DNA of 64,000 nucleotides from Candidatus Woesearchaeota archaeon (GCA_019323015.1 JAHWHY010000002.1:15100-79099), one strand, 5' to 3'. Shown: positions 558 to 45,129, counted from the first letter of the stretch. The notes: a model not told the origin generated them from the sequence alone. Program-made: numbers and translations.

Positions 558-584
558 GTTAAATCAACCTCCGATTAATTTGAT

Positions 585-1376: not shown

Positions 1377-1378
1377 TT

Positions 1379-1924: not shown

Positions 1925-1942
1925 TTTTTCACCATTTATTTA

Positions 1943-18865: not shown

Positions 18866-21800
18866 TTGAACTTACTTAGATTTGCAGCTGTTTTTATGTT
18901 GTTTCTAGTGCTGTCTCTGCCAGTTTGTATTGCGCAGTCTCTTGAGATTGAAAGTTTTGCTGGCAAGGATAATGTTCAGAATTATGCAAGGCCTGATGAT
19001 GATGTCACTATGAATGTCAAGGCCATGATTCCAAGGGATTTAGTCATCAGTGATTCACAGGTTAAGGTGTGCAGGGGAGGGAGTTGTTCTTATCCGTCTT
19101 GCTCTCCTGGAGAAAGTTTTAAGGCAGATGTGTTTAATGAATGCATATACAAGGAAACTTTGGCAGATGAAAAAGGCATCTTTCCGTATACTGTCCAGCT
19201 TTTTGATGATGACAATAATCCAGTAAAGACGCTCTCAACAGAGTTAGGTATTGATAAGGTTCCCCCGAATATTCTTAATTTCAGGATAACGCCGCCTGCA
19301 ACAAAGGATGCTGCTGTTATTGAGATTGATGCGCAGGATTATGGCTCTGAAAAAGGTGATGCAAGCTATTGCGCTGGCATAAAGCAGGTTGATTTTTATG
19401 ATGAGGCTACTGGAACTGTCTTGTTTACAAAAGAGTTTGGTTATGAAGAGTGTGATATAAGTGATTCTTTTGAGTACAGGCATCAAACAAAAGAAAAATC
19501 AGAAAAACTGGTTGTTTGTGCAAAAGCTATTGACTTGTTTAATCAGGAAAGCGAGCCTGTCTGCAGGGATTTTGTTTATGATGAAGAAGGCCCGAAGTTT
19601 ATCAGTCTGGGCATGGCTGATACAGAAGGCAATCCCATTAGCCACATAACAAGTTCAGGCGCAGATGTTGAGATGGTTGTCGAGATTGATGATGCTTCTG
19701 ATTTGAGTGCTGTCACTGCAGATTTGTCAAAAATTTCAGGAAAATCCTCTGATAAGAGCAGGAAATTTAATTACAAAAAGGATGGTCTGTTTTATTGGTC
19801 TGGTTTTAGGGTTAATCCTGGTACTGTTTGTTCTGTTGATGTCAGGGCTGTTGATGCCTTGGATAATTCTGCTAATGCTTCTTTGTCTTGTGATGTTCTT
19901 GTTGATGATGCAGGTCCTGAGGTTCAGGAATTGATGTCTAGTTATGAGGATTATACAGGCTCTTACATAATGGCGCCTGGCACGCAGATAAAGGCAAGGA
20001 TTCTTGAGCCTGGTGTCGGACTGCACAAGCACGAGGTTTATCTTGACTTGTCAGAGGTTAACCTTGGCACTCTTCAGGCAGATTATTGTGAAAAAAAATC
20101 AGATAAGCTCTGGGTTTGTTACTGGAATGACATAACCCCTGAAGTTCGTGATGGTGATTATCAGATCAGGATTACAGGGGATTCAAGAGATGACTTGGGT
20201 AATCCTGTTCTTGAAACAGCAGGCCTTGATGTTGAGACATACACAAAGGCTGCGCGGATTACTGCAATAAGCCAGTATCCTGTCTCGCCTTCTTATGAAG
20301 ATACTCTTGAGTTCACTCTTCGTGTTGAGAATGCAAAGACAGAGCCGAGTGTTTTTGTTGATGCTTCCCAGATAAGCAGTGATGCATTTCCAAAGCAGGC
20401 TCTCTGTACTGGTGCAGGTATTGAGGAATGGGAGTGTTCTGTTGATGTGGGAATGCTTAATCAGGTGTATATGAAGGAAATGATTACTTTTTCCACAAAA
20501 GGGGATTCTATGCAGGAGGTTCCTTTTGAGGTCACTGTTTATGAGCCAGAGCCTGCTGGGCGTGTTGACTTTTATACAATCACTGCAACTAGTGTGATGC
20601 CAAGGAAGGGCTTTGATAAGAGTATGATGGAAAGTGATATTCCTGTTCCTGTTTATTTGCAGCCAAGGCTAAAGAAAAAGGCGCCTGATTCAGACATGTC
20701 TATTCTTGAGACAAGTGCAGATTGCACTGCAGAGGGGGCTTCTGATGTTTATCTGGTTCAGGGAAATCCTGAAAAGCCGTATATTGTTGTGAAGGGTTCT
20801 TCTGACCTTGCTGACCAGGACACGCCTGTAAAGGTTGACTGCACTCTTTCATTGAGGCTGCGGGAGGGCGAGAGGGTTTTCAAGAATCTTGAGACAGAGT
20901 CTTTTAGTGTTAATATTCCTGTTTATGGCAATCCTTTGGGGACAATTGATGAGAATGCAAAGGCGCAGATTACTGCCATGGATGACAGGGTGTGGGATTT
21001 GCAGAAGAGAACCACCCGCTGGTCTGATGTCAATGATTGGGTCGGCACTATTGTTTGGCTTGCCCAGTCTCTTGCGCAGATGGATTCAACTAATAATTAT
21101 ATTGGGAGCATTCTTTGGCTTGTTGCTGTTGTGCTGTATGAGCTTAGGGTCATAAAGCCTTTGGGTATTGGTGATGCCTGCAAGGCAGCTTCAAAGTTTT
21201 TATGGAAGACTGTTGCCTGCAGTATGCTTACTGATTTAAACATGCTTGTTTTGGATTATGTCTGGAATCCTGGAATGATTGGGTCTGAGATTTTTTCAGC
21301 AAAGGCAAGTGTTGCAGCAGAGGGCTTGTGGACTACGCTGATAAAGACTGTTTCAATTATTTATTCCTGCCAGATGTGTGATTACAGCAGTTCTCTTTAT
21401 GCTGGAACTAAAAAGATTATTTATGGTGACACTAGTTTTGATATAGGTGCAAGCAGGGGCAAGCCGACTGAGATAGAGCGTTTTACTGTTTATGATTGGG
21501 ATCCTTACAGGAGCATGCATATTGCGATGGGCTGCTTGTGCATTCCTGGTATTGTTTATAATATGAGAAAAGAGGTTCAGGTCAATTGTATTTATCGTAA
21601 TTGCATTGAGCAGAATGCAGAGCTTGGTCTGCCGTTTGATTCCTGCCAGCAGACTTTCAAGGAGCAGAATTGTTTGTATGTTGATGGTGCTGCCTGGCGT
21701 GTTGCAGGTGGTTCTGGGATTGCTTTTACATTGAACAGCCTGCTTACAGTCATACTTGACCAGCTTCCTATGATGGTTACCAGTAAGGCATGGAGCATGG

Positions 21801-22069
21801 TTTGTGACCCAGACTGCGGCATGTTTGGTAAAGAGCAGACATCTGAAGAGAAGAATTGCGGAGAGTATGGGCTGGCGCTGAATAAGGGAAGCGGAGAGAG
21901 CGCGTATCCTGATAAGTGCAGGGATTATCCTGAGGATGACTGGCGTGTTCCTTTCTGTGCTTTGTGGACAGGAACAATGCTCTTGCAGGAGACTGATTTT
22001 TTTGGGACAAACAAGTTTGGCTGGGATAGGTATTATGCAGAACTGGAAGGTGAGGATTATTGTGATTAA
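18866..22069 (+). CDS. Family A1: giant secreted Ig-like protein with a Cys-rich helical C-terminal domain
   Basis: Sec signal ending PVCIAQ; DxxPP/DxxGP-linked beta-rich repeats; GCLCIPGIVYN motif. Collinear with 29022-32204. Confidence 0.85.
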   Translation: MNLLRFAAVFMLFLVLSLPVCIAQSLEIESFAGKDNVQNYARPDDDVTMNVKAMIPRDLVISDSQVKVCRGGSCSYPSCSPGESFKADVFNECIYKETLADEKGIFPYTVQLFDDDNNPVKTLSTELGIDKVPPNILNFRITPPATKDAAVIEIDAQDYGSEKGDASYCAGIKQVDFYDEATGTVLFTKEFGYEECDISDSFEYRHQTKEKSEKLVVCAKAIDLFNQESEPVCRDFVYDEEGPKFISLGMADTEGNPISHITSSGADVEMVVEIDDASDLSAVTADLSKISGKSSDKSRKFNYKKDGLFYWSGFRVNPGTVCSVDVRAVDALDNSANASLSCDVLVDDAGPEVQELMSSYEDYTGSYIMAPGTQIKARILEPGVGLHKHEVYLDLSEVNLGTLQADYCEKKSDKLWVCYWNDITPEVRDGDYQIRITGDSRDDLGNPVLETAGLDVETYTKAARITAISQYPVSPSYEDTLEFTLRVENAKTEPSVFVDASQISSDAFPKQALCTGAGIEEWECSVDVGMLNQVYMKEMITFSTKGDSMQEVPFEVTVYEPEPAGRVDFYTITATSVMPRKGFDKSMMESDIPVPVYLQPRLKKKAPDSDMSILETSADCTAEGASDVYLVQGNPEKPYIVVKGSSDLADQDTPVKVDCTLSLRLREGERVFKNLETESFSVNIPVYGNPLGTIDENAKAQITAMDDRVWDLQKRTTRWSDVNDWVGTIVWLAQSLAQMDSTNNYIGSILWLVAVVLYELRVIKPLGIGDACKAASKFLWKTVACSMLTDLNMLVLDYVWNPGMIGSEIFSAKASVAAEGLWTTLIKTVSIIYSCQMCDYSSSLYAGTKKIIYGDTSFDIGASRGKPTEIERFTVYDWDPYRSMHIAMGCLCIPGIVYNMRKEVQVNCIYRNCIEQNAELGLPFDSCQQTFKEQNCLYVDGAAWRVAGGSGIAFTLNSLLTVILDQLPMMVTSKAWSMVCDPDCGMFGKEQTSEEKNCGEYGLALNKGSGESAYPDKCRDYPEDDWRVPFCALWTGTMLLQETDFFGTNKFGWDRYYAELEGEDYCD

Positions 22070-22553
22070 TCATAAGAAAGTGGTTGTTGTTTTGGCTTTT
22101 GCTGTCTTGTTTTTGCTAGTCGTGCTTTCTAATAATATTACTGCTCCTACTCCTACAACTCCTTGGTATCAGGTTGAGGATTGGGAAAAAGAGGTTTGCT
22201 CTAAATGGGGCGGCACTCAGTTTTCTGGCCAGGCTGCAGTCACTTCTGGAAGAAAGTTTTCTTTTGCAGCGCTTACAGCTACTGTGCAGGGCAAAAGGCT
22301 GAAGACGCCTGAGAATTTTTATCTTTATGAGGTTGCCTGGTATATTGACTCTTTTGCAGAGGACATTGATTATGAGATTTCCTTGTTTCATCCTGACAAT
22401 GCAGAAGTTTTCAAGATTGTTGAGGCAGGAAGGCTTGTTCCTGAGGCAGGGACAACAGGGTATCAGGTTTATAACCTTACGCAGGATTTCACGCATATTA
22501 AATTCAAGTATACGGGCGGGCAGGTTGTCACGCCGATAATACAGGTGAGATGA
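22062..22553 (+). CDS. Family B1: exported hypothetical protein
   Basis: GTG start at 22062 with GGTGAGG RBS, overlapping the A1 stop. N-terminal TM; ATVQGKR...YLYEVAWYI resembles B2. Confidence 0.7.
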   Translation: MINHKKVVVVLAFAVLFLLVVLSNNITAPTPTTPWYQVEDWEKEVCSKWGGTQFSGQAAVTSGRKFSFAALTATVQGKRLKTPENFYLYEVAWYIDSFAEDIDYEISLFHPDNAEVFKIVEAGRLVPEAGTTGYQVYNLTQDFTHIKFKYTGGQVVTPIIQVR

Positions 22554-22554
22554 A

Positions 22555-23319
22555 ATGAAGTTATTGTTTGTTGAAAGCTTTAGGAAGATTGACAAGAGAT
22601 TTGTTTATGTTGTGTTGTTTGATTTCTTGTTTTATGCAGGGCTTGCGCTCTCTGTTATTTTGTTCCTGAAACTGCTTGCATGGGGGCTTGGCTCGCTTCA
22701 CCAGCTTCCTGGAAAGTTTCTTGCAATGAGCAGGATGTCTGATTTTGGGCAGTTGGGTGCTGGTGCAGAGGACCTGGGTTTGTTGTTGAATCAGTTCAAG
22801 GCAAAGCTTTTTGTTGCTTTTGTCGTGTTTTGGCTCTTTGTTGTTCTTGTTTTTACTTTTTTCAAGGGTCTTGCATGGAGTTTTGTTTTAGGGCAGAAGA
22901 TTGATAGGAAATTCTTGATTAAGTTTTTTAAGCTTAATCTGTGGTGGCTTGGTATTATTGCAGGAATGTTTTTGGTTGTGTTCTGGCTGACAAAGCCTGC
23001 TGCAACAGGTTTTTCTGTAATGCTGCTGCTGGCGCTTGCATTGTATTTTACTCCTGTTTTTTATGCATTGTTTAATCCAAAGAAAGATGTCAGGGATTTG
23101 TTTGCCCGGTTGTGGCATGTTGGTATTGAGAGATTTTATTTTTTTATTTTGCCTTTTATTGCTGCAAAGCTTGTTTTGTTTGTTTTTCTTGCTGTAATGG
23201 CTGTTGTTTTGCTTGCAGTTGTTCCTGATATTGCGCTTTATGGCTTGTTTGCGTGTTTTGTGGTGTGGCAGTCCTGGTTCAAGTATTATGTTTGTCTGGT
23301 TGCAGGGAGGATTAAATGA
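22555..23319 (+). CDS. Family C1: multi-pass membrane protein
   Basis: About 6 TM segments; FRKIDKRFVYVVLFD and FKGLAW...KFFKLNLWW motifs shared with C2 and C3. Confidence 0.8.
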   Translation: MKLLFVESFRKIDKRFVYVVLFDFLFYAGLALSVILFLKLLAWGLGSLHQLPGKFLAMSRMSDFGQLGAGAEDLGLLLNQFKAKLFVAFVVFWLFVVLVFTFFKGLAWSFVLGQKIDRKFLIKFFKLNLWWLGIIAGMFLVVFWLTKPAATGFSVMLLLALALYFTPVFYALFNPKKDVRDLFARLWHVGIERFYFFILPFIAAKLVLFVFLAVMAVVLLAVVPDIALYGLFACFVVWQSWFKYYVCLVAGRIK

Positions 23320-25880
23320 ATAAGAGGGCTCAGGTAACAATTTATATCATTATCGGGATAGTGATATTGTTTTCAATAGCCACTGCAGTTTATGTTGCGC
23401 ATAGATTGTTGGTTTCTCCTGAGGAGATTGCTACTGTTGACAGGCCGATTAAGGATTATGTTGAGGCGTGCATACAGCAGGTTGGTGAGCAGGCCTTGCT
23501 TCCTGTGGGAGCTTCAGGCGGTTATCTTGATCCTGGTAATCCTGTTTTGTCTGGTCAGGATTTTTTTGTCTCTAAAGATCCTGCAGAGGGTGATGCTTTG
23601 CTTGTCTCTGAATTAACTGGTGACTTTATTCCTTATTGGTTTTACATGTCAACTGGGAATGACTGCAAGCAGTGCATGATGGAGTCTATGCAGCCTTCTA
23701 TTGAGCAGGTCAAGAGCCAGATTGATGGTTATATGGAGGAGCATCTTGAAGAGTGCATTCACTCTTTTGAGCCGTTTCTTGAGCAGGGCTATATTTTTGA
23801 GACAGGTGATGTGCAGTCAGATATTTTGCTTGCTGAGGAGAGCACGAGGTTCTTGGTTAATTATCCTGTGACTGCAAAAAAGCTTGATGTGACCACGAAA
23901 ATGGAGAATTTTGTTGGTGTTGTTGATGTTCCTTTCAAGAAGATGTATGATTTGGCAGGCAGGATAACTAAAGAGGAAAAAGAAAAGGCGTTTCTTGAGA
24001 GTGTCTTGTTTCATTTTATCTCGCTTCATACTGGCCTGGAGATGTCAAAGCTTCCTCCGCTTGGAGGTGTTACGCATGACAAGATTCTTGTCAATTGGTT
24101 CAGGCCTATGGTTGAGATGAATGTTCAGCAGCTGCTGCTTAGTTATATTCCTTTGATTCAATTGTATAACACTAAGGATGCAAGGCAGGTTTCTGCTGGA
24201 GATAATGTTTTTGAGGAGGGCTTTTACAAGGGGCTTTACCTTAAGTTTTTGAAGGAGAAGCATCCGTTTAATGTTAATTTCATGTATCTTGAGTGGCCTT
24301 TTTATTTTGATATAACTCCTCGGTCAGGAGAGATTTTGACAGGTGAGGCGCATATCCAGGAGTGGCCGTTTAATTTTGCAACTGCATTCCAGACAAATTA
24401 TTATGAGTTTTATTATGATGTTTCTGCTCCTGTGATGGTTGAGATAAGGGATCCAGACGCCCTGAAAGGAAAAGGTTATTCCTTTAATTTTGCTCTTGAG
24501 TTGAATGTGCGCGATAACAAGGATTTTGTTGAGTGGAACAGGGGTGAGGGGACTATTGGCTACTGGGATTCTTCAAAAGCAGGTATTGAGACAAAGGATG
24601 TTGAGACGCAGACAGGCGTGTGTTCAGAGCAGGGCAGTATGTGGAAATGTGATATTTCAGGCAGGTCTTATCCAGGCCAGGTGGAGTGTGTGCAGAATTG
24701 TTATGTCTCAACGTCAAGACGGGTTCCTTTTAAGCCGGTGAAGAAATTGTTTGCAGATGAGAATCAGAAAGTAAGTGATACGCATATAATTTCTGTTTTT
24801 GATGCTGTCACAAAACAAGGAGTAAATGAGGTTAGTATATTGTTTACCTGTGGAAAATACAAGACTGTTATTCTTGGCGGGACAGATTTACGGGGGCGGC
24901 TCAAGACCAAGCTGCCTATGTGCATTAATGGCCAGCTTTCTTTTGACAAGGATGGTTATGCAAAAAAGATTATTCCTTTGACAGTCAAGCCAGATGACAG
25001 GAAAGAGATAGATGTTTTCATGGAGCCAGAGGCACAGGTAAAAGCCACGATTAAGAAATACCCTATTCAGATAAGGAATTTGAGGGAGCTTGAGTATTCA
25101 CAGGAGCCAGAGGCACAGCTTTCAGTTAGTTATGCAGAGATTGACAGCTGGGAGGGCCTGGGCATGTCTGCTCTTGGCGGTTTTCAGGAGGTATTGAATC
25201 CTATTTCATTGAGCATTCACTGGGAAGAGGAAGGCTATAAGGTTGGGAAAGAGCAGAAGAACATGAAGATTTATGATAGGTATTGCTGTGATGCTCCTGA
25301 AAAATTAAATGCAAGTTACAAGGCGATTTTGATGGTTGAGAAGATTCCAGAAGAGCTTCTTGAGCCTGCTTATTTTCAGGCAATGATGCTTGAGAAAGGT
25401 GTTTCAGAGGATGTTATATCGCTTGTTCCTGGATTGTATAAGGTTACTGGGATGCTTATTGATGTGGATGGTTTTGTGATTGAGCCGGGGTGTCAGGAGA
25501 TTTGTCTTGAGTATGATACTGGCACTGAGTTTTATGTTGAGGAGATTGTTGGAGGAGTCATTGACCCTCTTGGCGCTATTCCAGAGGAAAAGCCTGAATG
25601 CAAGGAGTGGGGTTATTTCCCTGAGGAGGAGATTGTTGCAAAGCCTTCTTTGATGGGCGGTGTAATGCTGGATAATGCCACTGGTTACTGGAATGTGACG
25701 CGGGCAGACCTTAACAAGGGTGCTGTTGAGTTTTATTTTATCCAGACTCTGAAGCCGACATGCACTGCTGTTCAGGATTGTGTTCTTGATGTTTGTGTTG
25801 ATGTTGGTGAGACTCAGGCAACAAATTCATATTCTGCCAAGTACAGGGAGTATCTTGAGCCTGTGTTTAGTAGGCAGTGA
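23316..25880 (+). CDS. Family D1: large protein with class III (type IV pilin-like) signal peptide
   Basis: MNKRA|QVTIYIIIGIVILF; conserved blocks shared with D2 and D3. Confidence 0.8.
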   Translation: MNKRAQVTIYIIIGIVILFSIATAVYVAHRLLVSPEEIATVDRPIKDYVEACIQQVGEQALLPVGASGGYLDPGNPVLSGQDFFVSKDPAEGDALLVSELTGDFIPYWFYMSTGNDCKQCMMESMQPSIEQVKSQIDGYMEEHLEECIHSFEPFLEQGYIFETGDVQSDILLAEESTRFLVNYPVTAKKLDVTTKMENFVGVVDVPFKKMYDLAGRITKEEKEKAFLESVLFHFISLHTGLEMSKLPPLGGVTHDKILVNWFRPMVEMNVQQLLLSYIPLIQLYNTKDARQVSAGDNVFEEGFYKGLYLKFLKEKHPFNVNFMYLEWPFYFDITPRSGEILTGEAHIQEWPFNFATAFQTNYYEFYYDVSAPVMVEIRDPDALKGKGYSFNFALELNVRDNKDFVEWNRGEGTIGYWDSSKAGIETKDVETQTGVCSEQGSMWKCDISGRSYPGQVECVQNCYVSTSRRVPFKPVKKLFADENQKVSDTHIISVFDAVTKQGVNEVSILFTCGKYKTVILGGTDLRGRLKTKLPMCINGQLSFDKDGYAKKIIPLTVKPDDRKEIDVFMEPEAQVKATIKKYPIQIRNLRELEYSQEPEAQLSVSYAEIDSWEGLGMSALGGFQEVLNPISLSIHWEEEGYKVGKEQKNMKIYDRYCCDAPEKLNASYKAILMVEKIPEELLEPAYFQAMMLEKGVSEDVISLVPGLYKVTGMLIDVDGFVIEPGCQEICLEYDTGTEFYVEEIVGGVIDPLGAIPEEKPECKEWGYFPEEEIVAKPSLMGGVMLDNATGYWNVTRADLNKGAVEFYFIQTLKPTCTAVQDCVLDVCVDVGETQATNSYSAKYREYLEPVFSRQ

Positions 25881-26550
25881 TGTTAAGCATTAGAAGTTGT
25901 GTGCAGGATTTTTTGGTTGTTTCGTCTTTTATCTTGCTGCAGGTGTTGTGTCCTGCTGCTGCTAGATTAAAATAACATTGGTCTCTTACTTTTTGCTCGC
26001 TTATTTTTGCGCAGAATTCCGGCTTTGCAGCTGTTCCTGCAATTTGTGCATAACAGCTGTCTTTTTCCATTCTTGTTTTTAGGTCGCTGCAGAGGGCTTC
26101 TGCCCTGTCTGGTTCTGTTGTGCTTATCTCTCTTATTTCTGCTATTTTCATTGAGCTCTCAAATTCCTGTGTGTCTTCTGCAGGCGGTATTTTTATTTTT
26201 TCTGCAGGGGGTACTGGTATTTTGTCCAGGTCTATTTCTTCTTCTGTGATGATTTCTTCTTTTTGAAGCTCTTCTTTTTCTGGTATTGGAATTTCTTCTT
26301 TTGGAAGAAGTATATCTTTTTCAGGTGTCTGCATTTTTACATAAACAAGAACAGTTAGCACAATGATTACAAGTATAATCAGGGCTATTGCAATCCATAT
26401 CAAGGGCGGTTTTGGTTTTGCCTCTTTTATTGCTGCATCAACAACAGATGTGTTATTTCCTTGTCTTAGAAGAGTTTGTCTTATTTCAGTTGTACTATAC
26501 CCAGCTTTTAGCTGATCCTTGATATACTTCACCAAGCTCGCATTTGCCAT
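25867..26550 (-). CDS. Membrane protein with a small helical N-domain and C-terminal Cys repeats
   Basis: LVKYIKDQLKAGYSTTEIRQTLLRQG N-domain, TM, Pro/Glu linker, then repeats of C..I.....(R/K)D.CY...A. Confidence 0.75.
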   Translation of the reverse strand: MANASLVKYIKDQLKAGYSTTEIRQTLLRQGNNTSVVDAAIKEAKPKPPLIWIAIALIILVIIVLTVLVYVKMQTPEKDILLPKEEIPIPEKEELQKEEIITEEEIDLDKIPVPPAEKIKIPPAEDTQEFESSMKIAEIREISTTEPDRAEALCSDLKTRMEKDSCYAQIAGTAAKPEFCAKISEQKVRDQCYFNLAAAGHNTCSKIKDETTKKSCTQLLMLNITAY

Positions 26551-26699
26551 ATATTTGGTAAGAATATGATTTGTATTATAAAAATTGTTTGTTATTAAAT
26601 GATAGTTAATTTTTGCACGGGTGTTTATATACGATTTTCCAATAAATTTATAAATAGAACCAAGATAAGCATATATTATAGTAAAAAAGGGTTGATTGT

Positions 26700-28931: not shown

Positions 28932-29011
28932 CAAAAGCAACAAATTTCAGAATATAGAAATTGCTTTTGCTTATTACGAAAAGCAAGCAAATACTAAATT
29001 ATTATTTGCTT
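28930..29011. other. Tandem inverted repeats (two stem-loops) between D2 and A2
   Basis: AGCAAAAGCAA (28930-28940) / TTGCTTTTGCT (28961-28971), and AAGCAAATA (28985-28993) / TATTTGCTT (29003-29011). Confidence 0.6.
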
Positions 29012-29021
29012 TGAGTATAGA

Positions 29022-34145: not shown

Positions 34146-34166
34146 ACTTTTGCGAAAAAGTTCAAG
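34141..34166 (+). terminator. 11-bp stem with GCGA (GNRA) tetraloop at the end of C2
   Basis: CTTGAACTTTT-GCGA-AAAAGTTCAAG, followed by a T-rich tract. Confidence 0.55.
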
Positions 34167-34264
34167 TCTTTAGATTTTTGCCTGATGAGTATATATAAGC
34201 AAAAATCTAATTTACATAACATTTTTATATATAAACATTAAAAATTGTTAAAAAGGGGTTATTT

Positions 34265-36259: not shown

Positions 36260-39200
36260 GAGCAAAGTCAAGGATTCAGTTGATTGCCTTGTTTATGATA
36301 GTTTTAGTTCTCGCGCTTCCTTTTGCTTTTGCACAGAACATGTCTGATGTTAATCAGACTTCTGTTCCTGAAACCCTTTCTTTGGAGATTTCTGTAAATC
36401 CTGTCAGCAAGGACAAGTATGTTGAGGTGAACGGCACTACTGCCCCTAATGCGCGTCTTGAGTATTACATAGGCCCTACAAAAGTAAAGGTCAGCAGGGC
36501 TAAGCAAGACGGCACTTTTACGACAACAAGGGTTCCTATGATAAAGAAAGGGGATAATGATTTGCTGGTTAAGGCTTCTATTGAGGATAAAACTGCGCAA
36601 AAGTCTTTTACAGTGCTTTATGACCCTGTGCCTCCTGACTTGAATGTTTCTTCAATTCCTGAGTTTACCACAAAGACTTCGCTTGAGGTGCATGGTGATG
36701 TTTCAGAGCCTGTGGTGGTTAAGTATACGAGTTATCCTAAGAAGGATTCTGATGCTCCTTCTGAAGTGGGTGGCCTGGAGATAAGGGATGTTAAGGATAA
36801 TCAGGTTACTATGGTGTGGACTCCTTCAGATGCTCTTGATTTGCTGGAGTATGCTGTTTACAGGGATGACACAAGGGTTGGTGTTGCGCGTTCTGCTATT
36901 TTTGTTGACAATAATGTTGCCAGTGGAAAAGAATACACTTACAGGGTGAGTGCTGTTGACACGAGCTGTAATGAGGGTGTAAAGTCTGCACCTAAGAAGG
37001 CAGAGACTTCTTCTGGCGGAAGTCCTGAGGAAAAGGCAGTTGCTGTTCCCTTGAGCTGTGTTCCTGCTTATGAGTCTCTTGATACTGCTGTTCCTTTTGA
37101 TATTACTTTGTCCTTGCAGGCTGGCGGTAATGTTGTTGAGATTATTGCTTCTGACAAGGCAGGTAATACTGCGAAGATTGAGAAGCTTGTCACTGTTGAT
37201 ACAGGTCCTCCGCAGTTTATCACCACTAATCTTGATAATATAGGCACTACTTATATTCCTGAGGTGACTGTTCGAGGTAATCTTTCTGAGAAAGGCACTG
37301 TTTTTGTTTATATTAATAATGAGAAAAACCCGAGTCATTTTGGGACTACAAATGATCAGGGTGGTTTTGAGATACCTGTAAAGCTGAAGTCTGATGTTAA
37401 GGTGGAGTCTGGCCAGGCTGCAGAGCTGGATACTGGTGTTGGCTGGCAGAACAAGATTAAGCTGAAGGCAGTTGATCTTGCAGGCCAGGAAGCCTGGTAT
37501 CCTGGGCAGCAGCAGACTAAAGATGTTGTTTGGGCTATTTGCGGTTATGGTTCATGGTTTGATTTTGATGTTGAAGAGGTTACTCCAGAGACACTTACTC
37601 CTCGGTTGTTGATGCAGGGCATTCAGCAGGTTGGTGTTCCTTTTACACTGAAGTATATTGGGGGCCAGGATGATGCAGAGATTGCTGGTGTTGTCAATGC
37701 TGTTCCTGTTCGCATATCTGCTGACCTTGAGGATTCTTTTGATAATGACAAGATAAGTGCTTCTCAGGTTTGGATAAAGCCAAGGCCTGGTGTCAAGGGT
37801 GTCTGGGATGGTTATGTTCAGATTAATTTTGCAGAGTGGCCTGTTGACCAGCTTGAGCTTGAGGGCAATGAGACTGCTGCTGCTATTGAAGAGGGCATCA
37901 GCAATTGGAGAAAAGGCACAGAGCATTTTCATGAGGCAGGCGTGTCTGAAAGAGGTGTTTATCTTAAGCCTGGCTGTCTTAATCCTTTGCTTGGCTGTGT
38001 AAAGCTTTATCTTGAAATAGATATTCCTTTAAAGGAAAAAAGCAGGATTTATGACCCGAACACTCAGCAGGAAAGGTTTGAGTGGAAGACTGTGAGGCAG
38101 AGGAACTGTCTTCCATTGGTGCTTGATATTGACCAGGTCATTCCTCCTGATGTCATCAGAAAAGATGCTTTGGAAGGCACTTCGCAGTTTTTGGGAAATG
38201 CCATTGATTTTATTGATGAGATTCTTGATCCTTTGTATACTTTTACTGAGAACATGGTTTACTTGTGCACAGCTGCTGCTGCAACCTTGTTCATAATGAG
38301 TCTTGCAAAAAGAGTTACCTGCAGTCCTGTTCTTGAGGCAATTGGTCTTTCAGAGAAGTTTGACCCTGAGATTGCCAGTGCCGGCCTTTGCCAGATGGCT
38401 TATGGGGGTCCGGAAGAGCAGGAAACAGATGAGTACCAGAATGAGGCAAAAAAATTAAATCTTAAGAAGACAGATATGTACAAAAGCTGTAATTCCTGTC
38501 AAGACATGCTGCAGGCTTACCGTGATGTTTTGCAGGATTTTTACCAGCCTATCTGTGACAGGATTGCCTGTCCAAGTGCTCCTACTGTTCAAAAGTATAT
38601 TATTGACAAAAGAGGCTCTACAAAGAAGATAACAACAAACATCAAGAATCTTAAGGTTGATGACAAGCCAGACACAACAAGACAGGACTGGATTATTAAA
38701 GAATGGGGTGTCAAGGGTGATGTTTATTCTGGCAGTGGCTGCGGCTTCAAGGATTTAGTCAGCACTAGTTATACTGTTTCAAAGGCAGAGCCAAAGCCTG
38801 TTGAATCATTGCCTACTGAGGAAGAAAAAGAAGCTAAACAAGAAGTCCTGCAGGAAGAAATGGCACAAACAGGAACCCCTACAGAACCAGCGTCATTGCA
38901 AGGTGCTGAATCAAATATTCCTGATTTAAATTTTGTGACAGGTGCAATGCCAATGGATGTTGTTGGTGCTTTTGCAACTGGTTCTGCTATTGCAAGTGCA
39001 AATGCAAAGGATAACAAGCCTGCTGCTGCTGGTTCAGTAAGTAAAGGAACTGCAAGTCCTCATGCTAACAAGATTTGTGGTATTGATATTGGAAAAGCTC
39101 CTTTAAGCGGCACTGGCGGCAAAATAGGCATAAAAGATATTTATGAGATTTACAAGGGGGATTATAAGGAATTAAAGGAAAAGTGTACAAAGCCTTCTTT

Positions 39201-42200
39201 CCATCCTGCCTGTCCATTCTGTTGTGGTATTGATTACATGTGGGAGTGGAACAGTGCTTGTGGTGTTGGTAATTTCCTTGGAATCACAAATGCTGGTCTT
39301 GATATTGATACTTATGATGAGTTAAAGCACAGCACAAAGCTTGCTGCTGAGAAAGTCGGCCGCGGTGATGATATTGGCGGTGATGGATTGTTAGGTATTT
39401 TTAATTCCTTGTCAGGCTTCTGCACAGCAGATGGAAACCCTACGCCTGATATTGTGAGCACTCACCTGAATTTTAATCCTAAGATTCAGGAGGCAGAAGA
39501 GAACTTGATGCAGGTTTTTGTGTTCCCAAATGCTGCAAGAATCGATAGTGGTGATGATTTCAAGTACCTGGTTTACAGGGGTTATCTTGCAAAGAAATTT
39601 GTTATTGAGAATGCTGTGAAAGAAAAAGGCAAGAAATATGACTTGTATAGTTTCTCAAGCACATTGAGTGCTGTCAAGGAAAAAGATCTTACTAAGTATT
39701 TCGAGCATCTTGGCACTGATAAAGAGGCTGCTGATAAAAAGGCATTTGCTACAGAACTGTGCAAGCCATTGGGTAATTCTAAATTTACTGGAAGCAAGTC
39801 CTGCTCTGCAAGGGCTCCTGAGGTTTTTGAAAAAGTTAAGGCGCATATAAGTACTGTTGATGAAGAGTATATAATAAGGCCTGATTCAAGCATAATCAAC
39901 AGCGTAAGATGTATCTGCCTGAGCTCGCTTATTGCTTTCTTAGAGCAGTGGAGGCAGATTGCTCAGGCTATCAAGAACTGCATTGATACAATTATCCTTA
40001 CTGGTGATGGTGAAGAGGGCATGTGCAGGTCAATGTTGAGCAATTATGTTTGTGATTTGTTGTGGGAGATTATTACTTGTTTTGCAAATAAGTGGAGCAA
40101 GCCGACTGGTACAAGGATTAGTGGTGACGTTGGTCCTGGTGATGTTCTTGGCTTGGTTACTGGTGCTGGTACAGATGTCTCAAATCAGGTTAAGGGAAGG
40201 TATGGCGAGACAGCAATGTTTAATGCAATGTTTAATGAGAAAGAGATTGTGCATGGCTTGTGTTTCCTTGCGTTTGGTCTTGAGTGGAATCTTGATGTTA
40301 GTGCTATGGTCAAGCAGAGCATTGAGTCTGTTCCTGTTGAGACAATGGTGCTTGGCCCTGCTCCTGCGCAGGCAAGGTTTATTGCCTGGAATCCTGTAAC
40401 TAATCCGCGGGGCTTGACTACATGGGAGTATCATTTTGGCTTGATGATTTCAGCTGGTGCTGACATTAACACAAGGGTTAAGCTGAAGTGCAGTACTGGC
40501 TTTGGATGCAGTGAGGCAGACGGCTTTGTCGGCGGAGAGTGTGACTGCAACAAGCTTGGCTCTGAAAAGATTATCTCTATTAATCCTACGTGCAAGCCTG
40601 CGTGGAAAGGAAGGCTTAACAAGAATGAGCTTGCAAGTTATGATTGCTCTTATCTTGTTCAGGCAGGCAAGTACAGGTATGACACTATTATTTTTGAGTA
40701 TGACTGGCAGGATCCTGGAACAAAGCAAAAAAGGTCTGATACCTCAGAAGCTTCATTGAACAGGATTGGCGCGTCTCCTCCTGCTTTCTGTAATTTTGAT
40801 TTGTTAAGCTTGAGTTTCAGGTGCAAGTTTGGGGAATCCCCTAGCGGGATAAAGATTGAGAAAGTAGAACCGCAGTATGGGTATAAAACAAAGAGTGACA
40901 AGCCGGTTTTTGCAATGGATGAAGACCTTGAGTTTGAGTTAAGTGTTGTGCAGGTCATGCCTGATGTTGCTGAAGAGCAGCAGCAGGGCATCAAGTATTT
41001 GGGTTATAAGGTCCTGAATTCTGAAAACAAGGTTGTTGCAGAGCTTGACCCAAGAACAGGGGAGTTTGCGCAGCATTATCAGTTCAAGACAGACGGTGCT
41101 TACAAGCAAAAAGTAGAGGTCAGGAGAGGCACTCAAACCACTTGGGAGAATTCTTTTGCAAAAGGCGGAGGAACAAGTGGTTCAAGATACCAGGTTGAGC
41201 CTAGGTCAGATGATATTCCTGTCCTGAATAAGATAAAAGCAGACCCTTCAAAATACATTGATGGAATCAGCATAACAGCAACCAAGGATGGCAAGACAGT
41301 CACTCCTGCTGCCAGCAAGAGATTCTTTGTCAGCATAATGGATAATGCTGTTGCAGCATATGAAGCTAAAGGAGCCACATCTTCTGGTTTGTTTACCAAG
41401 TCTGATGAAAATAGGCTTTTGGGAGACGTGCAGGAAGCAAAGGCTGGCCAGAAATATACTTTTACGCATATTGATGACAATAGCGGTATTAAATATGAGA
41501 TTTCTTTCAGGCTCAAGACCATTGACTTTGGAAGTGCAACAAACACCCAGTTCTTGATACAATATGTTGCTGGCAAGGCTTCTGGCGACCCTTGTGCAGG
41601 TGCTTTAGGCCAAAGAAGCCCTATGACCTGGAAGGTTACATTCACTTCTTATGATGCAGATAAGTATGGCAGGGTAACAGACCAAAAATCAGTTGATCCG
41701 ACAACAGGAGAAGTTCAGGAAAAAACAATTCCAATACAGGTTGTTTGTGATCCTAAACAAGAATTAAAAGCAAAAGGCGCAGAACCAACTCCTGTAACAC
41801 CTGTTGCTGGACCAAAGATATCTTCAGTTGTACTCTTGCCAGAAGGCGTGAGAACTCGGGGTGACACGCTTGTGTCAGACAGTAAAAATGTGCTAATTGT
41901 TTCCAAAGACCAGGAAAATGTTTTACTGCAGGTCGTGCTCTCAGAGCCTGCTGATGAAGTCAAGGCAGACATTACATATGATTCAACCACAGTTTCATGG
42001 ACCTTGCAAAAAGATGCTTCAGAACCTAAAAAGTATGTTTCCGCTGAAAAACTAAACTTGAAAAGCGCTGCACTAAGCAAGATTGTAATTACAGTCAAGA
42101 AAGACAGTAAAGAAACTGACAGTAAAACATATGAGTTTGGTGAGGCAGAACCAACTCCTGCAGCTGCTGGACCAAAGATAGAATCCGCAAAATTAGGAGA

Positions 42201-43725
42201 TATGGATTTAGTACCAGATAAGATGGCATATGTTCTTCCTGGAACTCAAACATTGTTTATTGCTGTTACAGACTACGCCACCAAAGTTGAGGTAGATGGT
42301 ACATTAATTAAAGGCGATTTAGAAAAACACCCTGGAATTAAAAATTTATTCATCAAAGAAATGATTGATATTAAGCCAAAACAATCAGATGAAGTAACAG
42401 TTACTGTTTATAAAGATGACAAAATAACTGATCAGAAAAAATATTTGTTTAGCGCCCCTTCTGATAAAATCGTAAATATGGAATTACTTGTAAGCTATAG
42501 CCCAGAAAGATATGACGGAATTAAGATGAAAAAAGAACAGACTGACAGTAAGTATGTTTTTTATATTGATAAATTAGAAGATAACTATGAATTAAAAATG
42601 TATTTCGCAAATGGGACAGGCGTTAAGGTTAACGATGAAACTTTTAATACAGGCCCCCCAAATACTATTGCAGACAGCGGCAAAGGAAGCGAATTAGTAG
42701 GTCAGCAAATCCAAATAACTTTACTGGGCGAAGAAAACAAAGAGTTAGATACAGCGCAAGTTCATTATTTGGCTGCAGAAGAGGTTTCATCACGTGAAGC
42801 AGAATGGGATACAGATTGCGACGGCATTGAAAAATGCGAAGATTATACTTCTCTTCAATACAAAAAAGTATATGATCATAGTATACAAGAAGGCTGTGAA
42901 CAAAATAAGTGTAATGTGGAGGGTTTGTGTGGTTATAAACTTAATAAGTGTATTACAGTAGATTGTAGTAGAGTTGATGCTTGTACAGATTATACTGTTG
43001 CAGGGGAGTATGTTTGTGTTAATGATGCTTGTAAGAAAAGATTGTCTTGCTTGTGGAATCATGAAAAGAATATTTGTGCTCCAAAAAAAGGCATCATAGA
43101 AAGCATAACTTTGGGCGGCGTAGACTTAAAAGAAGAAGAGGAAGTTACTGTTCCAAAAACAGGAATGCAGGATTTAATAATTAAATTAAATCAAGAAGTT
43201 GATAGGGTGTATGTTTATGGAAGTTATGGTGCTAGTCTTTTGATGGGTGATTTAAAGCAAAAAATAGATCCTACAACATATGGCCCAATGAAACTGAACT
43301 TGTCAAAAGTCATAACAGCACCAAAAGGCAGGAAATACGGCAATATAGGTGTGGATGTATACAAGGATGGGATGCAGATAGATCATAAGAGGGTTAGGTT
43401 TACGGTTGTGCCTTTGAGTGTGGGTAGTTACTGGACTTCAATGAGCGTCTCTGACTGGACAGAATCTTCTGATTTATTACAGTTAGTAAAAATGTTGGAT
43501 ACACAACCAGACCTGCTTCAATTCAAAATAATAACGGGTAAAAAAAAAGGCAGTGAAATCAATATACCTGTCAAAGAATTGGGTGTATTAGTTCCAGATC
43601 CTTGTTCAAGATTAACAGATTGTTCTGATTATGCTGTTAAGAATACTTGCTTTTACGATCCTTGCAGTTTTACTTGCCAATGGAACGATGCCACGAAGAA
43701 ATGTGAAAAAGGCTGGGCAGGATAA
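36256..43725 (+). CDS. Family A3: 2489-aa secreted protein with Ig-like and FN3 domains, a Cys-rich helical domain and an extended repetitive C-terminus
   Basis: Signal ending PFAFAQ; FN3 (VTMVWTPS...YAVYRD...YTYRVSAVD); RCICLSSLIAFLEQWRQI motif; C-terminal beta repeats and two Cys-rich modules. Confidence 0.85.
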   Translation: MRAKSRIQLIALFMIVLVLALPFAFAQNMSDVNQTSVPETLSLEISVNPVSKDKYVEVNGTTAPNARLEYYIGPTKVKVSRAKQDGTFTTTRVPMIKKGDNDLLVKASIEDKTAQKSFTVLYDPVPPDLNVSSIPEFTTKTSLEVHGDVSEPVVVKYTSYPKKDSDAPSEVGGLEIRDVKDNQVTMVWTPSDALDLLEYAVYRDDTRVGVARSAIFVDNNVASGKEYTYRVSAVDTSCNEGVKSAPKKAETSSGGSPEEKAVAVPLSCVPAYESLDTAVPFDITLSLQAGGNVVEIIASDKAGNTAKIEKLVTVDTGPPQFITTNLDNIGTTYIPEVTVRGNLSEKGTVFVYINNEKNPSHFGTTNDQGGFEIPVKLKSDVKVESGQAAELDTGVGWQNKIKLKAVDLAGQEAWYPGQQQTKDVVWAICGYGSWFDFDVEEVTPETLTPRLLMQGIQQVGVPFTLKYIGGQDDAEIAGVVNAVPVRISADLEDSFDNDKISASQVWIKPRPGVKGVWDGYVQINFAEWPVDQLELEGNETAAAIEEGISNWRKGTEHFHEAGVSERGVYLKPGCLNPLLGCVKLYLEIDIPLKEKSRIYDPNTQQERFEWKTVRQRNCLPLVLDIDQVIPPDVIRKDALEGTSQFLGNAIDFIDEILDPLYTFTENMVYLCTAAAATLFIMSLAKRVTCSPVLEAIGLSEKFDPEIASAGLCQMAYGGPEEQETDEYQNEAKKLNLKKTDMYKSCNSCQDMLQAYRDVLQDFYQPICDRIACPSAPTVQKYIIDKRGSTKKITTNIKNLKVDDKPDTTRQDWIIKEWGVKGDVYSGSGCGFKDLVSTSYTVSKAEPKPVESLPTEEEKEAKQEVLQEEMAQTGTPTEPASLQGAESNIPDLNFVTGAMPMDVVGAFATGSAIASANAKDNKPAAAGSVSKGTASPHANKICGIDIGKAPLSGTGGKIGIKDIYEIYKGDYKELKEKCTKPSFHPACPFCCGIDYMWEWNSACGVGNFLGITNAGLDIDTYDELKHSTKLAAEKVGRGDDIGGDGLLGIFNSLSGFCTADGNPTPDIVSTHLNFNPKIQEAEENLMQVFVFPNAARIDSGDDFKYLVYRGYLAKKFVIENAVKEKGKKYDLYSFSSTLSAVKEKDLTKYFEHLGTDKEAADKKAFATELCKPLGNSKFTGSKSCSARAPEVFEKVKAHISTVDEEYIIRPDSSIINSVRCICLSSLIAFLEQWRQIAQAIKNCIDTIILTGDGEEGMCRSMLSNYVCDLLWEIITCFANKWSKPTGTRISGDVGPGDVLGLVTGAGTDVSNQVKGRYGETAMFNAMFNEKEIVHGLCFLAFGLEWNLDVSAMVKQSIESVPVETMVLGPAPAQARFIAWNPVTNPRGLTTWEYHFGLMISAGADINTRVKLKCSTGFGCSEADGFVGGECDCNKLGSEKIISINPTCKPAWKGRLNKNELASYDCSYLVQAGKYRYDTIIFEYDWQDPGTKQKRSDTSEASLNRIGASPPAFCNFDLLSLSFRCKFGESPSGIKIEKVEPQYGYKTKSDKPVFAMDEDLEFELSVVQVMPDVAEEQQQGIKYLGYKVLNSENKVVAELDPRTGEFAQHYQFKTDGAYKQKVEVRRGTQTTWENSFAKGGGTSGSRYQVEPRSDDIPVLNKIKADPSKYIDGISITATKDGKTVTPAASKRFFVSIMDNAVAAYEAKGATSSGLFTKSDENRLLGDVQEAKAGQKYTFTHIDDNSGIKYEISFRLKTIDFGSATNTQFLIQYVAGKASGDPCAGALGQRSPMTWKVTFTSYDADKYGRVTDQKSVDPTTGEVQEKTIPIQVVCDPKQELKAKGAEPTPVTPVAGPKISSVVLLPEGVRTRGDTLVSDSKNVLIVSKDQENVLLQVVLSEPADEVKADITYDSTTVSWTLQKDASEPKKYVSAEKLNLKSAALSKIVITVKKDSKETDSKTYEFGEAEPTPAAAGPKIESAKLGDMDLVPDKMAYVLPGTQTLFIAVTDYATKVEVDGTLIKGDLEKHPGIKNLFIKEMIDIKPKQSDEVTVTVYKDDKITDQKKYLFSAPSDKIVNMELLVSYSPERYDGIKMKKEQTDSKYVFYIDKLEDNYELKMYFANGTGVKVNDETFNTGPPNTIADSGKGSELVGQQIQITLLGEENKELDTAQVHYLAAEEVSSREAEWDTDCDGIEKCEDYTSLQYKKVYDHSIQEGCEQNKCNVEGLCGYKLNKCITVDCSRVDACTDYTVAGEYVCVNDACKKRLSCLWNHEKNICAPKKGIIESITLGGVDLKEEEEVTVPKTGMQDLIIKLNQEVDRVYVYGSYGASLLMGDLKQKIDPTTYGPMKLNLSKVITAPKGRKYGNIGVDVYKDGMQIDHKRVRFTVVPLSVGSYWTSMSVSDWTESSDLLQLVKMLDTQPDLLQFKIITGKKKGSEINIPVKELGVLVPDPCSRLTDCSDYAVKNTCFYDPCSFTCQWNDATKKCEKGWAG

Positions 43726-43726
43726 A

Positions 43727-44542
43727 ATGCCATCTAAACTCTTCCTATCCCAACTAAAACCTGCATTTAATCTTTGTAAAAAAAACAAAGGTTTCTTCCT
43801 ATTATCTTGTTTCATTGACCTTGTTTTCTTCTTGATATTGTTGGCTGTGAATTATTTTTTTCTTATGAGTGTTAAGGATTTTATTGTTGGGTTTATTGAT
43901 GCTGTTCAGGAGAATTTTGCAGGTGTTTTGGAAAAAAACCTTACTGTGATTTCTCCTGGTATGATTAAGACTCCTGAGTTAATGAGTGCGTATCATTTGA
44001 TACTTAAGTATGTTGTTGTTTTTGTGTTGATTGCTTTGCTTGTCTGGATTGTTTTCAAGGGGATTAATTGGTTTATTGCGAATAGATTGATAAGAAAAGT
44101 TAAGCCAGGGGATTTCATCAAAAGATTTATTGCTCACACTTTTCTTGCCTGCATCTGTTTATTTATTATCATGGTTATTGCAACTAATCTTGTTGCTTAT
44201 TCTTCTTCTAGCTTTCTTCCTTTGTTTGGCTCAACTACTGCAAGGTTTATCACGCTTGTTTTAATCTGGCTTCTTTCTTACTTCCTTGCTGTTTCATACT
44301 CAACAAACTTGACTTGTAAAGAACTCATGAAAGCAGGAATTAAGCATTACAAAGAGCTAGTTCCTGCGCATTTATTCATTTTCATTGGTTTTCTTTTGTT
44401 GTCTTATCTTACTGTGGAGTCAATCAAGCTTGATTTCTGGGCTCCTGTTTTCTTTGCTTTAATCATAACAATCCCCTTCGTGACATATGGAAGAATTTAT
44501 ATAGTAGTAGTTGTAAATAAAGTGTTAAAAAGAGGACGATGA
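43727..44542 (+). CDS. Family C3: multi-pass membrane protein
   Basis: ATG 2 nt after the A3 stop; FNLCKKNKGFFLLSCFID; FKGINW...KRFIAH. Confidence 0.8.
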   Translation: MPSKLFLSQLKPAFNLCKKNKGFFLLSCFIDLVFFLILLAVNYFFLMSVKDFIVGFIDAVQENFAGVLEKNLTVISPGMIKTPELMSAYHLILKYVVVFVLIALLVWIVFKGINWFIANRLIRKVKPGDFIKRFIAHTFLACICLFIIMVIATNLVAYSSSSFLPLFGSTTARFITLVLIWLLSYFLAVSYSTNLTCKELMKAGIKHYKELVPAHLFIFIGFLLLSYLTVESIKLDFWAPVFFALIITIPFVTYGRIYIVVVVNKVLKRGR

Positions 44543-45129
44543 GAGCTGAATCATTTTTTATGGTTATTGTTGGCATCTTTGCATTAGTTATTGTAGTGCA
44601 CAGTACTCCGACAGGCATGGCTATGAAGCAGCCGTTTAGTATTTTTATTCCTGGCGGCTTGGATATCCGTGATTTGATTATTCCTGGTGCAGGCCAGGCT
44701 GTTCAGGTTGAGATGCCTTCTGCTGCAGGCGGTGTTCCTGACTGGAACAATTTAAGGCCGGTTAATGTTGAGTTTTATGCTGACAGCATCATGGTTCCTC
44801 CTGTGATGAATGAATATAATTTTTTGCCTTTGAAAAAGGATGATATGAGGACTTTTTCAGGCAAGTTTGGCCCGTATTCAGAGGATTACAGAAAATATTT
44901 TTATGTAGAGCTTTGTTCATATGTCCTCTCCCAGCCAGAGATGTTTGGTTGTGAAAAAATAAGGGACTTGAATTTCATGGATGGGTATATTACCTTTGCG
45001 AGAGGTTACGACTATGACGAGTTTATTGCTGGTTTGGCTATGCGGAATTTTGGTGCTTATTATGTTGTACAAAGCACAGAATTCGGTCCGTTAGCTACAA
45101 GTAACAAGGCTGTGATTAATTTAGTTTAA
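44539..45129 (+). CDS. Exported hypothetical protein (possible class III signal)
   Basis: MRA|ESFFMVIVGIFALVIVV...PTGMA; coupled to C3. Confidence 0.65.
   Translation: MRAESFFMVIVGIFALVIVVHSTPTGMAMKQPFSIFIPGGLDIRDLIIPGAGQAVQVEMPSAAGGVPDWNNLRPVNVEFYADSIMVPPVMNEYNFLPLKKDDMRTFSGKFGPYSEDYRKYFYVELCSYVLSQPEMFGCEKIRDLNFMDGYITFARGYDYDEFIAGLAMRNFGAYYVVQSTEFGPLATSNKAVINLV

Follow-up and report, generated by a model that had tools for sequence, protein, structure and literature searches.

Large proteins that are not themselves pilins can be held at the cell surface by pilin-like partners; in the FimU-PilVWX-PilY1 complex, a non-pilin protein of about 1,000 residues is held in this way for adhesion. Display of large proteins through class III (prepilin-peptidase-type) signals is already known from the bindosome and from modular pilins. 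The bindosome of Saccharolobus solfataricus (BasEF) exposes large globular non-pilin proteins, sugar-binding proteins with class III signals, whose genes are not located with those for the base of the type IV filament (PMC13705601), and bacterial modular pilins such as Streptococcus sanguinis PilB carry a pilin-type N terminus on a large functional module (PMC8179133). In Methanococcus maripaludis, EppA substrates have a leader ending in Gly, followed by Gln at +1 and Glu at +5 (PMC3875500), and the pilin genes of its Epd pili (system 1) lie away from the motor locus (PMC3875500; PMC13705601). One ATPase gene with two platform genes is the hallmark of system 1 (PMC13705601, PMC3875500), which is reported to be the commonest in DPANN archaea, where the genes for filament components usually lie dispersed over the chromosome and not at one locus (PMC13705601). 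Here we describe a block of 13 genes at positions 18866-45129 of a 64,000-nucleotide stretch from a Candidatus Woesearchaeota archaeon (GCA_019323015.1 JAHWHY010000002.1:15100-79099; "the window" denotes this whole stretch). It holds three sets of paralogous genes: family D, with a class III-type N terminus; family A, giant proteins with Sec signals; and families B and C, smaller secreted or membrane proteins.

We put at roughly one half the probability that the block encodes a lineage-specific multi-subunit cell-surface complex that is anchored by prepilin-peptidase substrates and probably serves adhesion or host contact; a single undescribed complex, rather than three interchangeable adhesins, is most likely. 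The features are listed below, with a slash marking cleavage-type sites, here and in the text (Ig, immunoglobulin).

18866-22069, plus strand: A1, secreted giant of 1067 residues; Sec signal ending PVCIA/QS; beta-rich Ig-like region
About 20921-22066, plus strand: C-terminal cysteine-rich helical domain of A1
About 22035-22553, plus strand: B1, about 170 residues; N-terminal membrane helix and beta-rich ectodomain
22555-23319, plus strand: C1, polytopic membrane protein of 254 residues; about five or six hydrophobic helices by hydropathy
23316-25880, plus strand: D1, 854 residues; class III-type N terminus MNKRA/QVTIYIIIGIV; member of the patchily kept D1 clade
25867-26550, minus strand: X, divergent membrane-anchored protein of 227 residues
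26700-28931, plus strand: D2, 743 residues; class III-type leader MVLKKG/Q; hydrophobic helix at 26700-26815
29022-32204, plus strand: A2, secreted giant of 1060 residues; Sec signal ending PVAFA/QK; Ig-like region
31074-32201, plus strand: C-terminal cysteine-rich all-helical domain of A2, with 10 invariant cysteines
32201-33313, plus strand: B2, secreted or anchored protein of 370 residues; Sec-type signal and a coiled-coil stretch
33306-34145, plus strand: C2, polytopic membrane protein of 279 residues, family C
34265-36259, plus strand: D3, 664 residues; class III-type N terminus MIKKRA/QVTVFIIIGII; member of the old D3 clade
36256-43725, plus strand: A3, secreted giant of 2489 residues; Sec signal ending PFAFA/QN; fn3/Ig-like domains
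About 38113-40815, plus strand: central cysteine-rich region of A3, holding the CxC core common to A1/A2
About 43727-44542, plus strand: C3, polytopic membrane protein of about 271 residues, family C
44539-45129, plus strand: E3, 196 residues, overlapping C3 by 4 nt

The genes are arranged as A1-B1-C1-D1 / X(-) / D2-A2-B2-C2 / D3-A3-C3-E3, 12 on the plus strand and X alone on the minus strand. Open reading frame (ORF) calls agreed with the order, strands, and sizes given in a first-pass annotation of the window, and revealed E3 as an additional coupled gene that was absent from it. The overlapping or abutting junctions described there were also recovered: within the runs we measured -35 (A1/B1), +1 (B1/C1), and -4 nt (C1/D1); -4 (A2/B2) and -8 nt (B2/C2); and -4 (D3/A3), +1 (A3/C3), and -4 nt (C3/E3), so that the tight coupling holds. 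Overlaps are mostly of 4-8 nt, and the wider spacings are D2/A2 (+90 nt) and C2/D3 (+119 nt). The B1 ORF is open from 21936 with a likely start at 22035, inside the 3' end of A1; that of C3 is open from 43631, with a likely ATG 1 nt past the A3 stop.

Compared with Epd pilins, D proteins share the short basic leader, small residue, Gln at +1, Ser/Thr at +3, and hydrophobic helix, and the Epd motor layout of one ATPase and two membrane components recurs beside the operon in four related loci (L041, L043, L051, L053). They differ in length (660-850 versus 60-250 residues), in having Phe rather than Glu at +5, and in lacking a DUF361/class III Pfam match and, in the predicted model, a pilin fold; A, B, and C have no counterpart at the Epd locus. 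Like the bindosome binding proteins, D proteins are large and encoded away from filament base machinery, but they lack a substrate-binding-protein fold or Pfam match, no ATP-binding cassette (ABC) transporter is adjacent, and they are partnered by Ig/Cys-rich giants together with a polytopic membrane protein of small size. Searches showed no resemblance to modular pilins or PilY1 complexes in sequence or fold; D lacks a complete pilin module, and the set described here is archaeal and duplicated in modules with dedicated membrane proteins. The likeness of the three predicted C-terminal beta sandwiches of D2 to Gram-positive CnaB stalks (BcpA, SpaC, GBS52, TIE proteins) is at the domain level only, and no sortase, LPXTG, or archaeosortase signal accompanies it. 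Archaeal surface-layer (S-layer) proteins (SlaA/SlaB, PGF-CTERM) differ in that our proteins have no Pfam match, a SlaB match at the beta-sandwich level only, and no C-terminal anchor on A. Scans of all 13 proteins against Pfam, NCBIfam, and PHROGs gave nothing meaningful (best PHROGs value 0.0077, noise), and neither D nor neighboring genes had Pfam matches to solute-binding proteins or ABC transporters. Neither the families nor the combination of genes turned up as described in the searched literature or in Pfam, NCBIfam, PHROGs, and the PDB; together with Foldseek, these searches support the earlier statement that no described system has this composition.

The gene set recurs in other genomes. 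A degenerate-pattern scan of one genome per species returned at least 410 stretches encoding D relatives; 79 loci were fetched (numbered with the prefix L), and all their ORFs were classified with per-family hidden Markov models (HMMs). Relatives of the focal genes all lie in Woesearchaeota or Nanoarchaeia (DPANN) metagenome-assembled genomes. Synteny was counted from D2 over 77 loci, the denominators being loci with enough downstream sequence. An A gene directly follows D2 in 62/66 loci; B is present in 43/47, C in 40/46, D3 in 39/45, and A3 in 35/42, with a median junction of -4 nt across related loci. The order D2-A2-B2-C2-D3-A3 recurs in most of the 77 loci, down to 28% D2 identity; the co-occurrence and synteny in other genomes, which the first-pass annotation proposed to check with HMMs, are borne out. 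A C3 orthologue follows A3 in L084 and in L086 (45% identity); in L087, a 271-aa gene occupies the C3 position, and similarity of it to C3 was not detected. Since in L087 (4570-15072) D3, A3, and this downstream gene stand alone, without D2-A2-B2-C2 directly upstream, the module appears to be a separable unit. Module 1 (A1-B1-C1-D1) occurs in the close relatives L005, L006, L009, and L011 and is partly present in the distant L046 and L058.

The position of the locus is conserved as well: in distant genomes it sits in housekeeping surroundings, next to the gene for ribosomal protein S6e (rpS6e) or methionyl-tRNA synthetase (MetRS). In the window, the flanks hold rpS6e, rpS19e, threonyl-tRNA synthetase (archaeal type, with the archaea-specific editing domain), Cbf5/TruB, eIF2-gamma, and arginyl-tRNA synthetase (ArgRS). 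Genes of about 700 aa upstream of D2 in many loci were considered as diverged D1 and proved to be MetRS; the assignment of membrane proteins of about 250 aa upstream of D2 to family C holds only in L074. Many operon-bearing genome records (L005, L008, L014, L017-L022, and others) are titled "uncultured Methanosarcinales archaeon"; this looks like a submission-level mislabel, because the D tree interleaves them with Woesearchaeota and Nanoarchaeia. A search for RNA-seq runs returned only DNA metagenomes (sediment, seawater).

Strong conservation of the D N terminus supports the proposed anchoring. We compiled 215 non-redundant D sequences from a protein search and the 77 genomic loci. The site has the consensus [KR][GAS]/Q-x-[TS]-x-[FY]-I-I-I-G: position -2 is K/R in 209 of the 215 sequences, position -1 is G (177), A (28), or S (9) in 214, Q occupies +1 and T/S +3 in every sequence, F/Y is found at +5 in 214, and G at +9 in 213. 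The leaders end in KRA/Q (D1), KKG/Q (D2), and KRA/Q (D3), and a hydrophobic helix follows directly (residues 7-30, Kyte-Doolittle peaks 2.65-3.17). Among D1-D3, 9-11 of the first 14 mature residues are identical, whereas identity elsewhere is 24-32%, which indicates a shared constraint on the helix; within the fetched loci, the helix motif is confined to D proteins. The class III-type signal noted on D in the first-pass annotation is thus very strongly conserved. A plain signal anchor needs no invariant small residue followed by Gln, so the site favors the class III reading, and we regard D proteins as very probably prepilin-peptidase substrates that, as judged from sequence, fall outside any described pilin family. 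The accompanying premise that 664-854 residues is unheard of for such substrates was overstated, since large non-pilin proteins with class III-type signals are documented among bindosome binding proteins and modular pilins (PMC13705601, PMC8179133).

The AlphaFold 2 model of D2 is confident (mean predicted local distance difference test score, pLDDT, 89.3; 69 sequences). It consists of a helix (residues 4-38), a low-confidence linker (39-49), an alpha/beta head of about 380 residues (approximately 50-430), and three C-terminal CnaB/transthyretin-like beta sandwiches. In a Foldseek search of the full model against the PDB, matches were limited to the sandwiches (TIE protein, BcpA, SpaC, GBS52, SlaB), with E values of 1e-8 to 1e-4 and whole-protein template modeling (TM) scores of about 0.1-0.15; for SlaB, the values were E = 1.4e-4 and TM = 0.11, at the beta-sandwich level only. 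The head had no match in this search, and no pilin or solute-binding-protein fold was among the matches. A family D profile gave nothing significant against PDB sequences, and the 177 D2 homologues from the protein search are all unnamed.

Filament machinery was found in relatives of the operon-bearing organism. T2SSF matches appeared when 114 ORFs chosen to represent the flanks of the related loci were scanned with Pfam, and in L041, L043, L051, and L053, a filament core lies on the minus strand, 4-6 kb upstream of D2 and divergent from it. In L041 (337-6062, minus strand; the same clade), this core comprises a 485-aa T2SSE ATPase (5e-39), two single-domain T2SSF platform genes (about 1e-11 each), a 175-aa Gln+1/Glu+5 pilin starting MVTKRKA/QAAMEFLMTYGW (KRKA/QAAMEF), and an unannotated protein of 595-655 aa. 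Because these four loci encode ATPase, platforms, and pilin, organisms with the operon are predicted to possess a type IV filament core and Gln+1 pilins. No A24 peptidase gene or GxGD motif was detected in the window or in the fetched loci.

On these data we propose that the block specifies a complex of repeated D-A-(B)-C modules in Woesearchaeota-type DPANN archaea. D would be exported and cut before the invariant Gln by a class III signal peptidase of the EppA/PibD kind, and its N-terminal helices would be held in the membrane or in a short bundle resembling a type IV filament, with the machinery for this bundle, including any filament motor on which it depends, encoded elsewhere. Each D would present its alpha/beta head, of unmatched fold, on a CnaB-like stalk. 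The A proteins would be giants exported through Sec that combine an Ig-like stalk with a helical domain stapled by disulfides; because they lack a membrane anchor of their own, D, B, and the small polytopic protein C would have to keep them in place. Two of the sets, modules 2 and 3, may be distinct, co-inherited parts of one apparatus, and module 1 a third old paralogous set kept by few lineages. The likely role is adhesion to, or contact with, partner cells or surfaces. The D helix is extremely conserved while the module-specific C is poorly conserved, and we therefore infer that the helix answers to a shared partner (the peptidase, an assembly platform, or other D helices) and not to C. A bolder version, which we consider doubtful, is that the near-invariant helices of D2 and D3 (and of D1 in genomes that have it) bundle in a short heteromeric pilus-like stalk nucleated at C that carries A, whose helical domain would engage the partner envelope or insert into it, a new Woesearchaeota/Nanoarchaeia envelope machine; if true, this would be the long-sought host-contact or exchange organelle of episymbiotic archaea.

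Much of the diversity of archaea belongs to the DPANN group, whose presumed way of life is attachment to other cells; to our knowledge, no attachment or exchange structure has been identified so far in Woesearchaeota. The cluster supplies concrete candidates for a surface apparatus in this group, from families all absent from Pfam, NCBIfam, and the PDB. It also broadens an emerging view in which class III signal peptides of archaea put large non-pilin proteins on display. In the D head and the cysteine-rich helical domain of A, it yields two confidently predicted domains that lack recognizable structural relatives.

Several observations weigh against a surface complex anchored by prepilin-peptidase substrates. 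D keeps the small residue at -1 and Gln at +1 of the EppA substrate definition but has Phe, not Glu, at +5, and Pfam, its pilin and class III models included, gave no family for D1-D3 at E <= 0.1. In the D2 model, the helix is predicted to run into a flexible linker and not a pilin fold. No small major pilin is conserved in the operon. The window holds no T2SSE, T2SSF, or A24 peptidase gene, in agreement with the earlier remark that it lacks an assembly ATPase or TadC-like gene, and the filament core is linked to the operon in one clade only (4-5 of 77 loci), with MetRS and other genes in between. The adhesive role, finally, is suggested only by the domain types and the presumed lifestyle of the organism.

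The main rival explanation is that D proteins are uncleaved signal-anchored (type II) proteins of a static S-layer-associated or canopy-type housekeeping layer that needs no filament machinery. A window without motor or peptidase, a linker in place of a pilin fold after the D2 helix, beta sandwiches of SlaB as one Foldseek match, a conserved housekeeping spot next to rpS6e or MetRS, and an operon that is near-universal in the sampled lineage would all suit such a layer. A signal anchor, however, requires neither an invariant [GAS]/Q junction nor a QxTxFIIIG helix that hardly varies; operon genomes encode type IV filament cores and Gln+1 pilins, and scattered filament parts are reported in most DPANN genomes (PMC13705601). 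We hold the static layer to be possible but less likely than the prepilin-peptidase-anchored complex.

The A proteins that this complex would display carry Sec signals and many invariant cysteines and have no convincing membrane helix; their C termini show neither a membrane helix nor PGF-CTERM. The N-terminal two-thirds of A2-type proteins is Ig-like (Pfam Big_3_3 in 16/46 homologues, Big_13 in 5/46). The C-terminal 376 residues of A2 were modeled by AlphaFold 2 as all-helical (pLDDT 81, predicted TM score 0.75; 59 sequences), with long helical hairpins. Foldseek of this domain against the PDB and BFVD gave no match below E 0.1, and a profile of the A C-terminal domain found nothing significant among PDB sequences. 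An exhaustive profile search places the domain in a very large family: a cutoff of E <= 1e-3 gave 1,512 representative clusters, and one of E <= 1e-30 gave 774. Nearly all of these proteins measure 1000-1100 aa and carry the domain C-terminally. With twice the length of A1/A2, A3 has a long extra region; past its central Cys-rich region come further Ig-like repeats and Cys-rich end modules. It shows weak fn3 and Glucodextran_B matches, and matches to fn3, Big_13, and Glucodextran_B also occur among its 22 homologues (1600-2489 aa). One A3 homologue (P0298) is labeled Aenigmarchaeota.

The architecture of A invites another explanation, that its helical domain inserts into the partner membrane as a pore or bridge for metabolite uptake, with D and C docking or anchoring it. 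The all-helical bundle with long hairpins and moderately hydrophobic stretches, the lack of an anchor of its own, the size and conservation of the family (the 1,512 clusters), and the presence of the alpha-pore-forming toxins ClyA and AhlB among the non-significant Foldseek matches are in keeping with insertion. These toxin matches, however, have E > 2 and TM of about 0.15, which is noise, and the hydrophobic stretches are borderline (Kyte-Doolittle 1.6-2.0) with a polar second hairpin arm; for the latter reason, we do not regard A as an integral membrane protein. We consider insertion into a partner membrane improbable.

The first-pass annotation had claimed paralogy among the sets for all four families. 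We found strong support in three cases (D, A1/A2, and C), moderate support in that of A3, and weak support in that of B. D1-D3 share 24-32% overall identity in pairs, and were linked by BLASTP (D1/D2 4e-63; D2/D3 5e-38; D1/D3 6e-26) and hhalign (D1/D2 1e-129; D3/D2 1e-96). A1/A2 gave 2e-73 (BLASTP) and 5e-114 (hhalign). C1/C2 gave 3e-7 and 2e-31, respectively, and the C2 HMM found C1 at 3e-33 and C3 at 1e-16; by these scores, C1, C2, and C3 are one family. A3 aligned with A2 over the N-terminal part (signal peptide and first Ig-like portion; hhalign 2.5e-12) and, with an A3 profile of 23 sequences, over a core of about 75 residues around CxC(L/I)P...RQI (hhalign probability 70%, E 3.9e-5, 74 columns), so that a CxC core common to A3 and A2 is moderately supported. 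B1/B2 similarity is weak (HMM 3e-4; hhalign probability 42%, P 2.6e-4), and B1 and B2 are therefore only tentatively placed in one family. Fusion of B into A3 was ruled out by HMM and hhalign comparison.

The motifs quoted for these families fared unevenly. As regular expressions, IPYWxY and EHLxxC (D), FKGxxW (C), the CxC(I/L)P type, and the signal end (V/F)(C/A)(I/F)AQ (both A) matched all three members of the respective family. Taken literally, CxxxxG..GG(Y/F) and YDVxxP...D.xA..G.G(Y/F).F in D, F..i.K.F.....D in C, and QGxR...YxYx(V/I)x(W/Y)xI in B matched no member, which we attribute to loose dot spacing in the annotation. The missed D and C motifs are visible by eye in the translations, the D consensus containing YDxSYPVLVEIxDPxAFxGxGYSFxF; the B motif was not confirmed.

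Three paralogous sets in one block could be read as interchangeable adhesin cassettes for host-range switching, as the first-pass annotation proposed, and the strongly diverged ectodomains (24-32% identity) and the extra region of A3 that A1/A2 lack would agree with this. The D phylogeny contradicts it. In a maximum-likelihood tree of 52 D proteins, D3 (100/100), D2 (98/91), and D1 (99/97) form separate clades, the D1 clade being sister to D2 and including a sequence from the distant L058. Since each clade has orthologues in distant genomes, the three paralogues are old, and most lineages have lost D1. In most loci, modules 2 and 3 are inherited together with their order unchanged, module composition is unequal (B is missing from module 3, and A3 has double the length of A1/A2), and inverted repeats, a recombinase, or shufflon-type features were not noted in the block. 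Separate old D clades and fixed-order co-inheritance argue for distinct co-functioning subunits and make swappable cassettes very improbable.

An integrated virus or mobile element with receptor-binding proteins, to which 26 kb on one strand with a strong GC skew and no annotated families might point, can be dismissed, because the block keeps its chromosomal position among housekeeping genes in distant genomes, PHROGs gave only the noise match, IMG/VR viral contigs held no D relatives, and neither integrase nor tRNA gene lies at the block borders.

B2 has a conserved C-terminal domain of about 270 aa, and its orthologues are 360-1200 aa long. Proteins of family C contain five or six hydrophobic helices and lack conserved residues of a catalytic type; the family gave no Pfam match, and its profile found nothing significant among PDB sequences. 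The earlier description of C as a membrane platform was not upheld, as no similarity to T2SSF or anything else was found. In X, about 45 aa at the N terminus form a helical domain, which is followed by a single membrane helix and a variable tail of Cys repeats (relatives 94-526 aa); X-like genes occur near D2 on either strand, often upstream of it (L005-L014, L026, L029, L034, L038-L058), and X may act as a regulator or partner, or the HMM may simply have detected a domain that is common in DPANN archaea. The N terminus of E3, MRA/ESFFMVIVGIFALVIVV, matches the class III pattern, and E3 may be a small pilin-like subunit. Its orthologue in L086 (57% identity) is in the same position; E3 was seen only in close relatives, and was found neither after C3 in L084 nor in L087.

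Some further features of the window and related loci were recorded. ARAGORN found no tRNA gene in the whole window (55439-55551 included), nor Rfam, at gathering thresholds, any RNA family; the contig ends about 2 kb to the right of the window. A Bat-like (aerotolerance-type) MoxR-VWA cluster at 3-6123 (minus strand) consists of genes for a MoxR-type AAA_3 ATPase, DUF7502, a coiled-coil protein, and two VWA proteins, one of them of BatA/VWA/DUF7406-7408 type. Directly after ArgRS, an AbiEii-family nucleotidyltransferase toxin gene (type IV toxin-antitoxin) occupies 62327-63010 (minus strand); in the sister contig L085, an 88-aa ORF follows the AbiEii-family gene. In one genome (L003/L070: 5424-9142 and 16525-17427), an IS4-type DDE transposase and an IS605 OrfB/TnpB (Cas12f-like) gene lie just upstream of the operon, and three genes, one of them encoding tetratricopeptide repeats, interrupt the operon between B and C. 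Between rpS6e and A1, the window encodes a 212-aa Big_9 Ig-like protein (18074-18712, plus strand); the same upstream position in the distant relatives L001 and L037 is taken by an Ig-rich protein of 987-1007 aa and a signal-peptide-bearing protein of 923-1134 aa that belongs to an unknown family.

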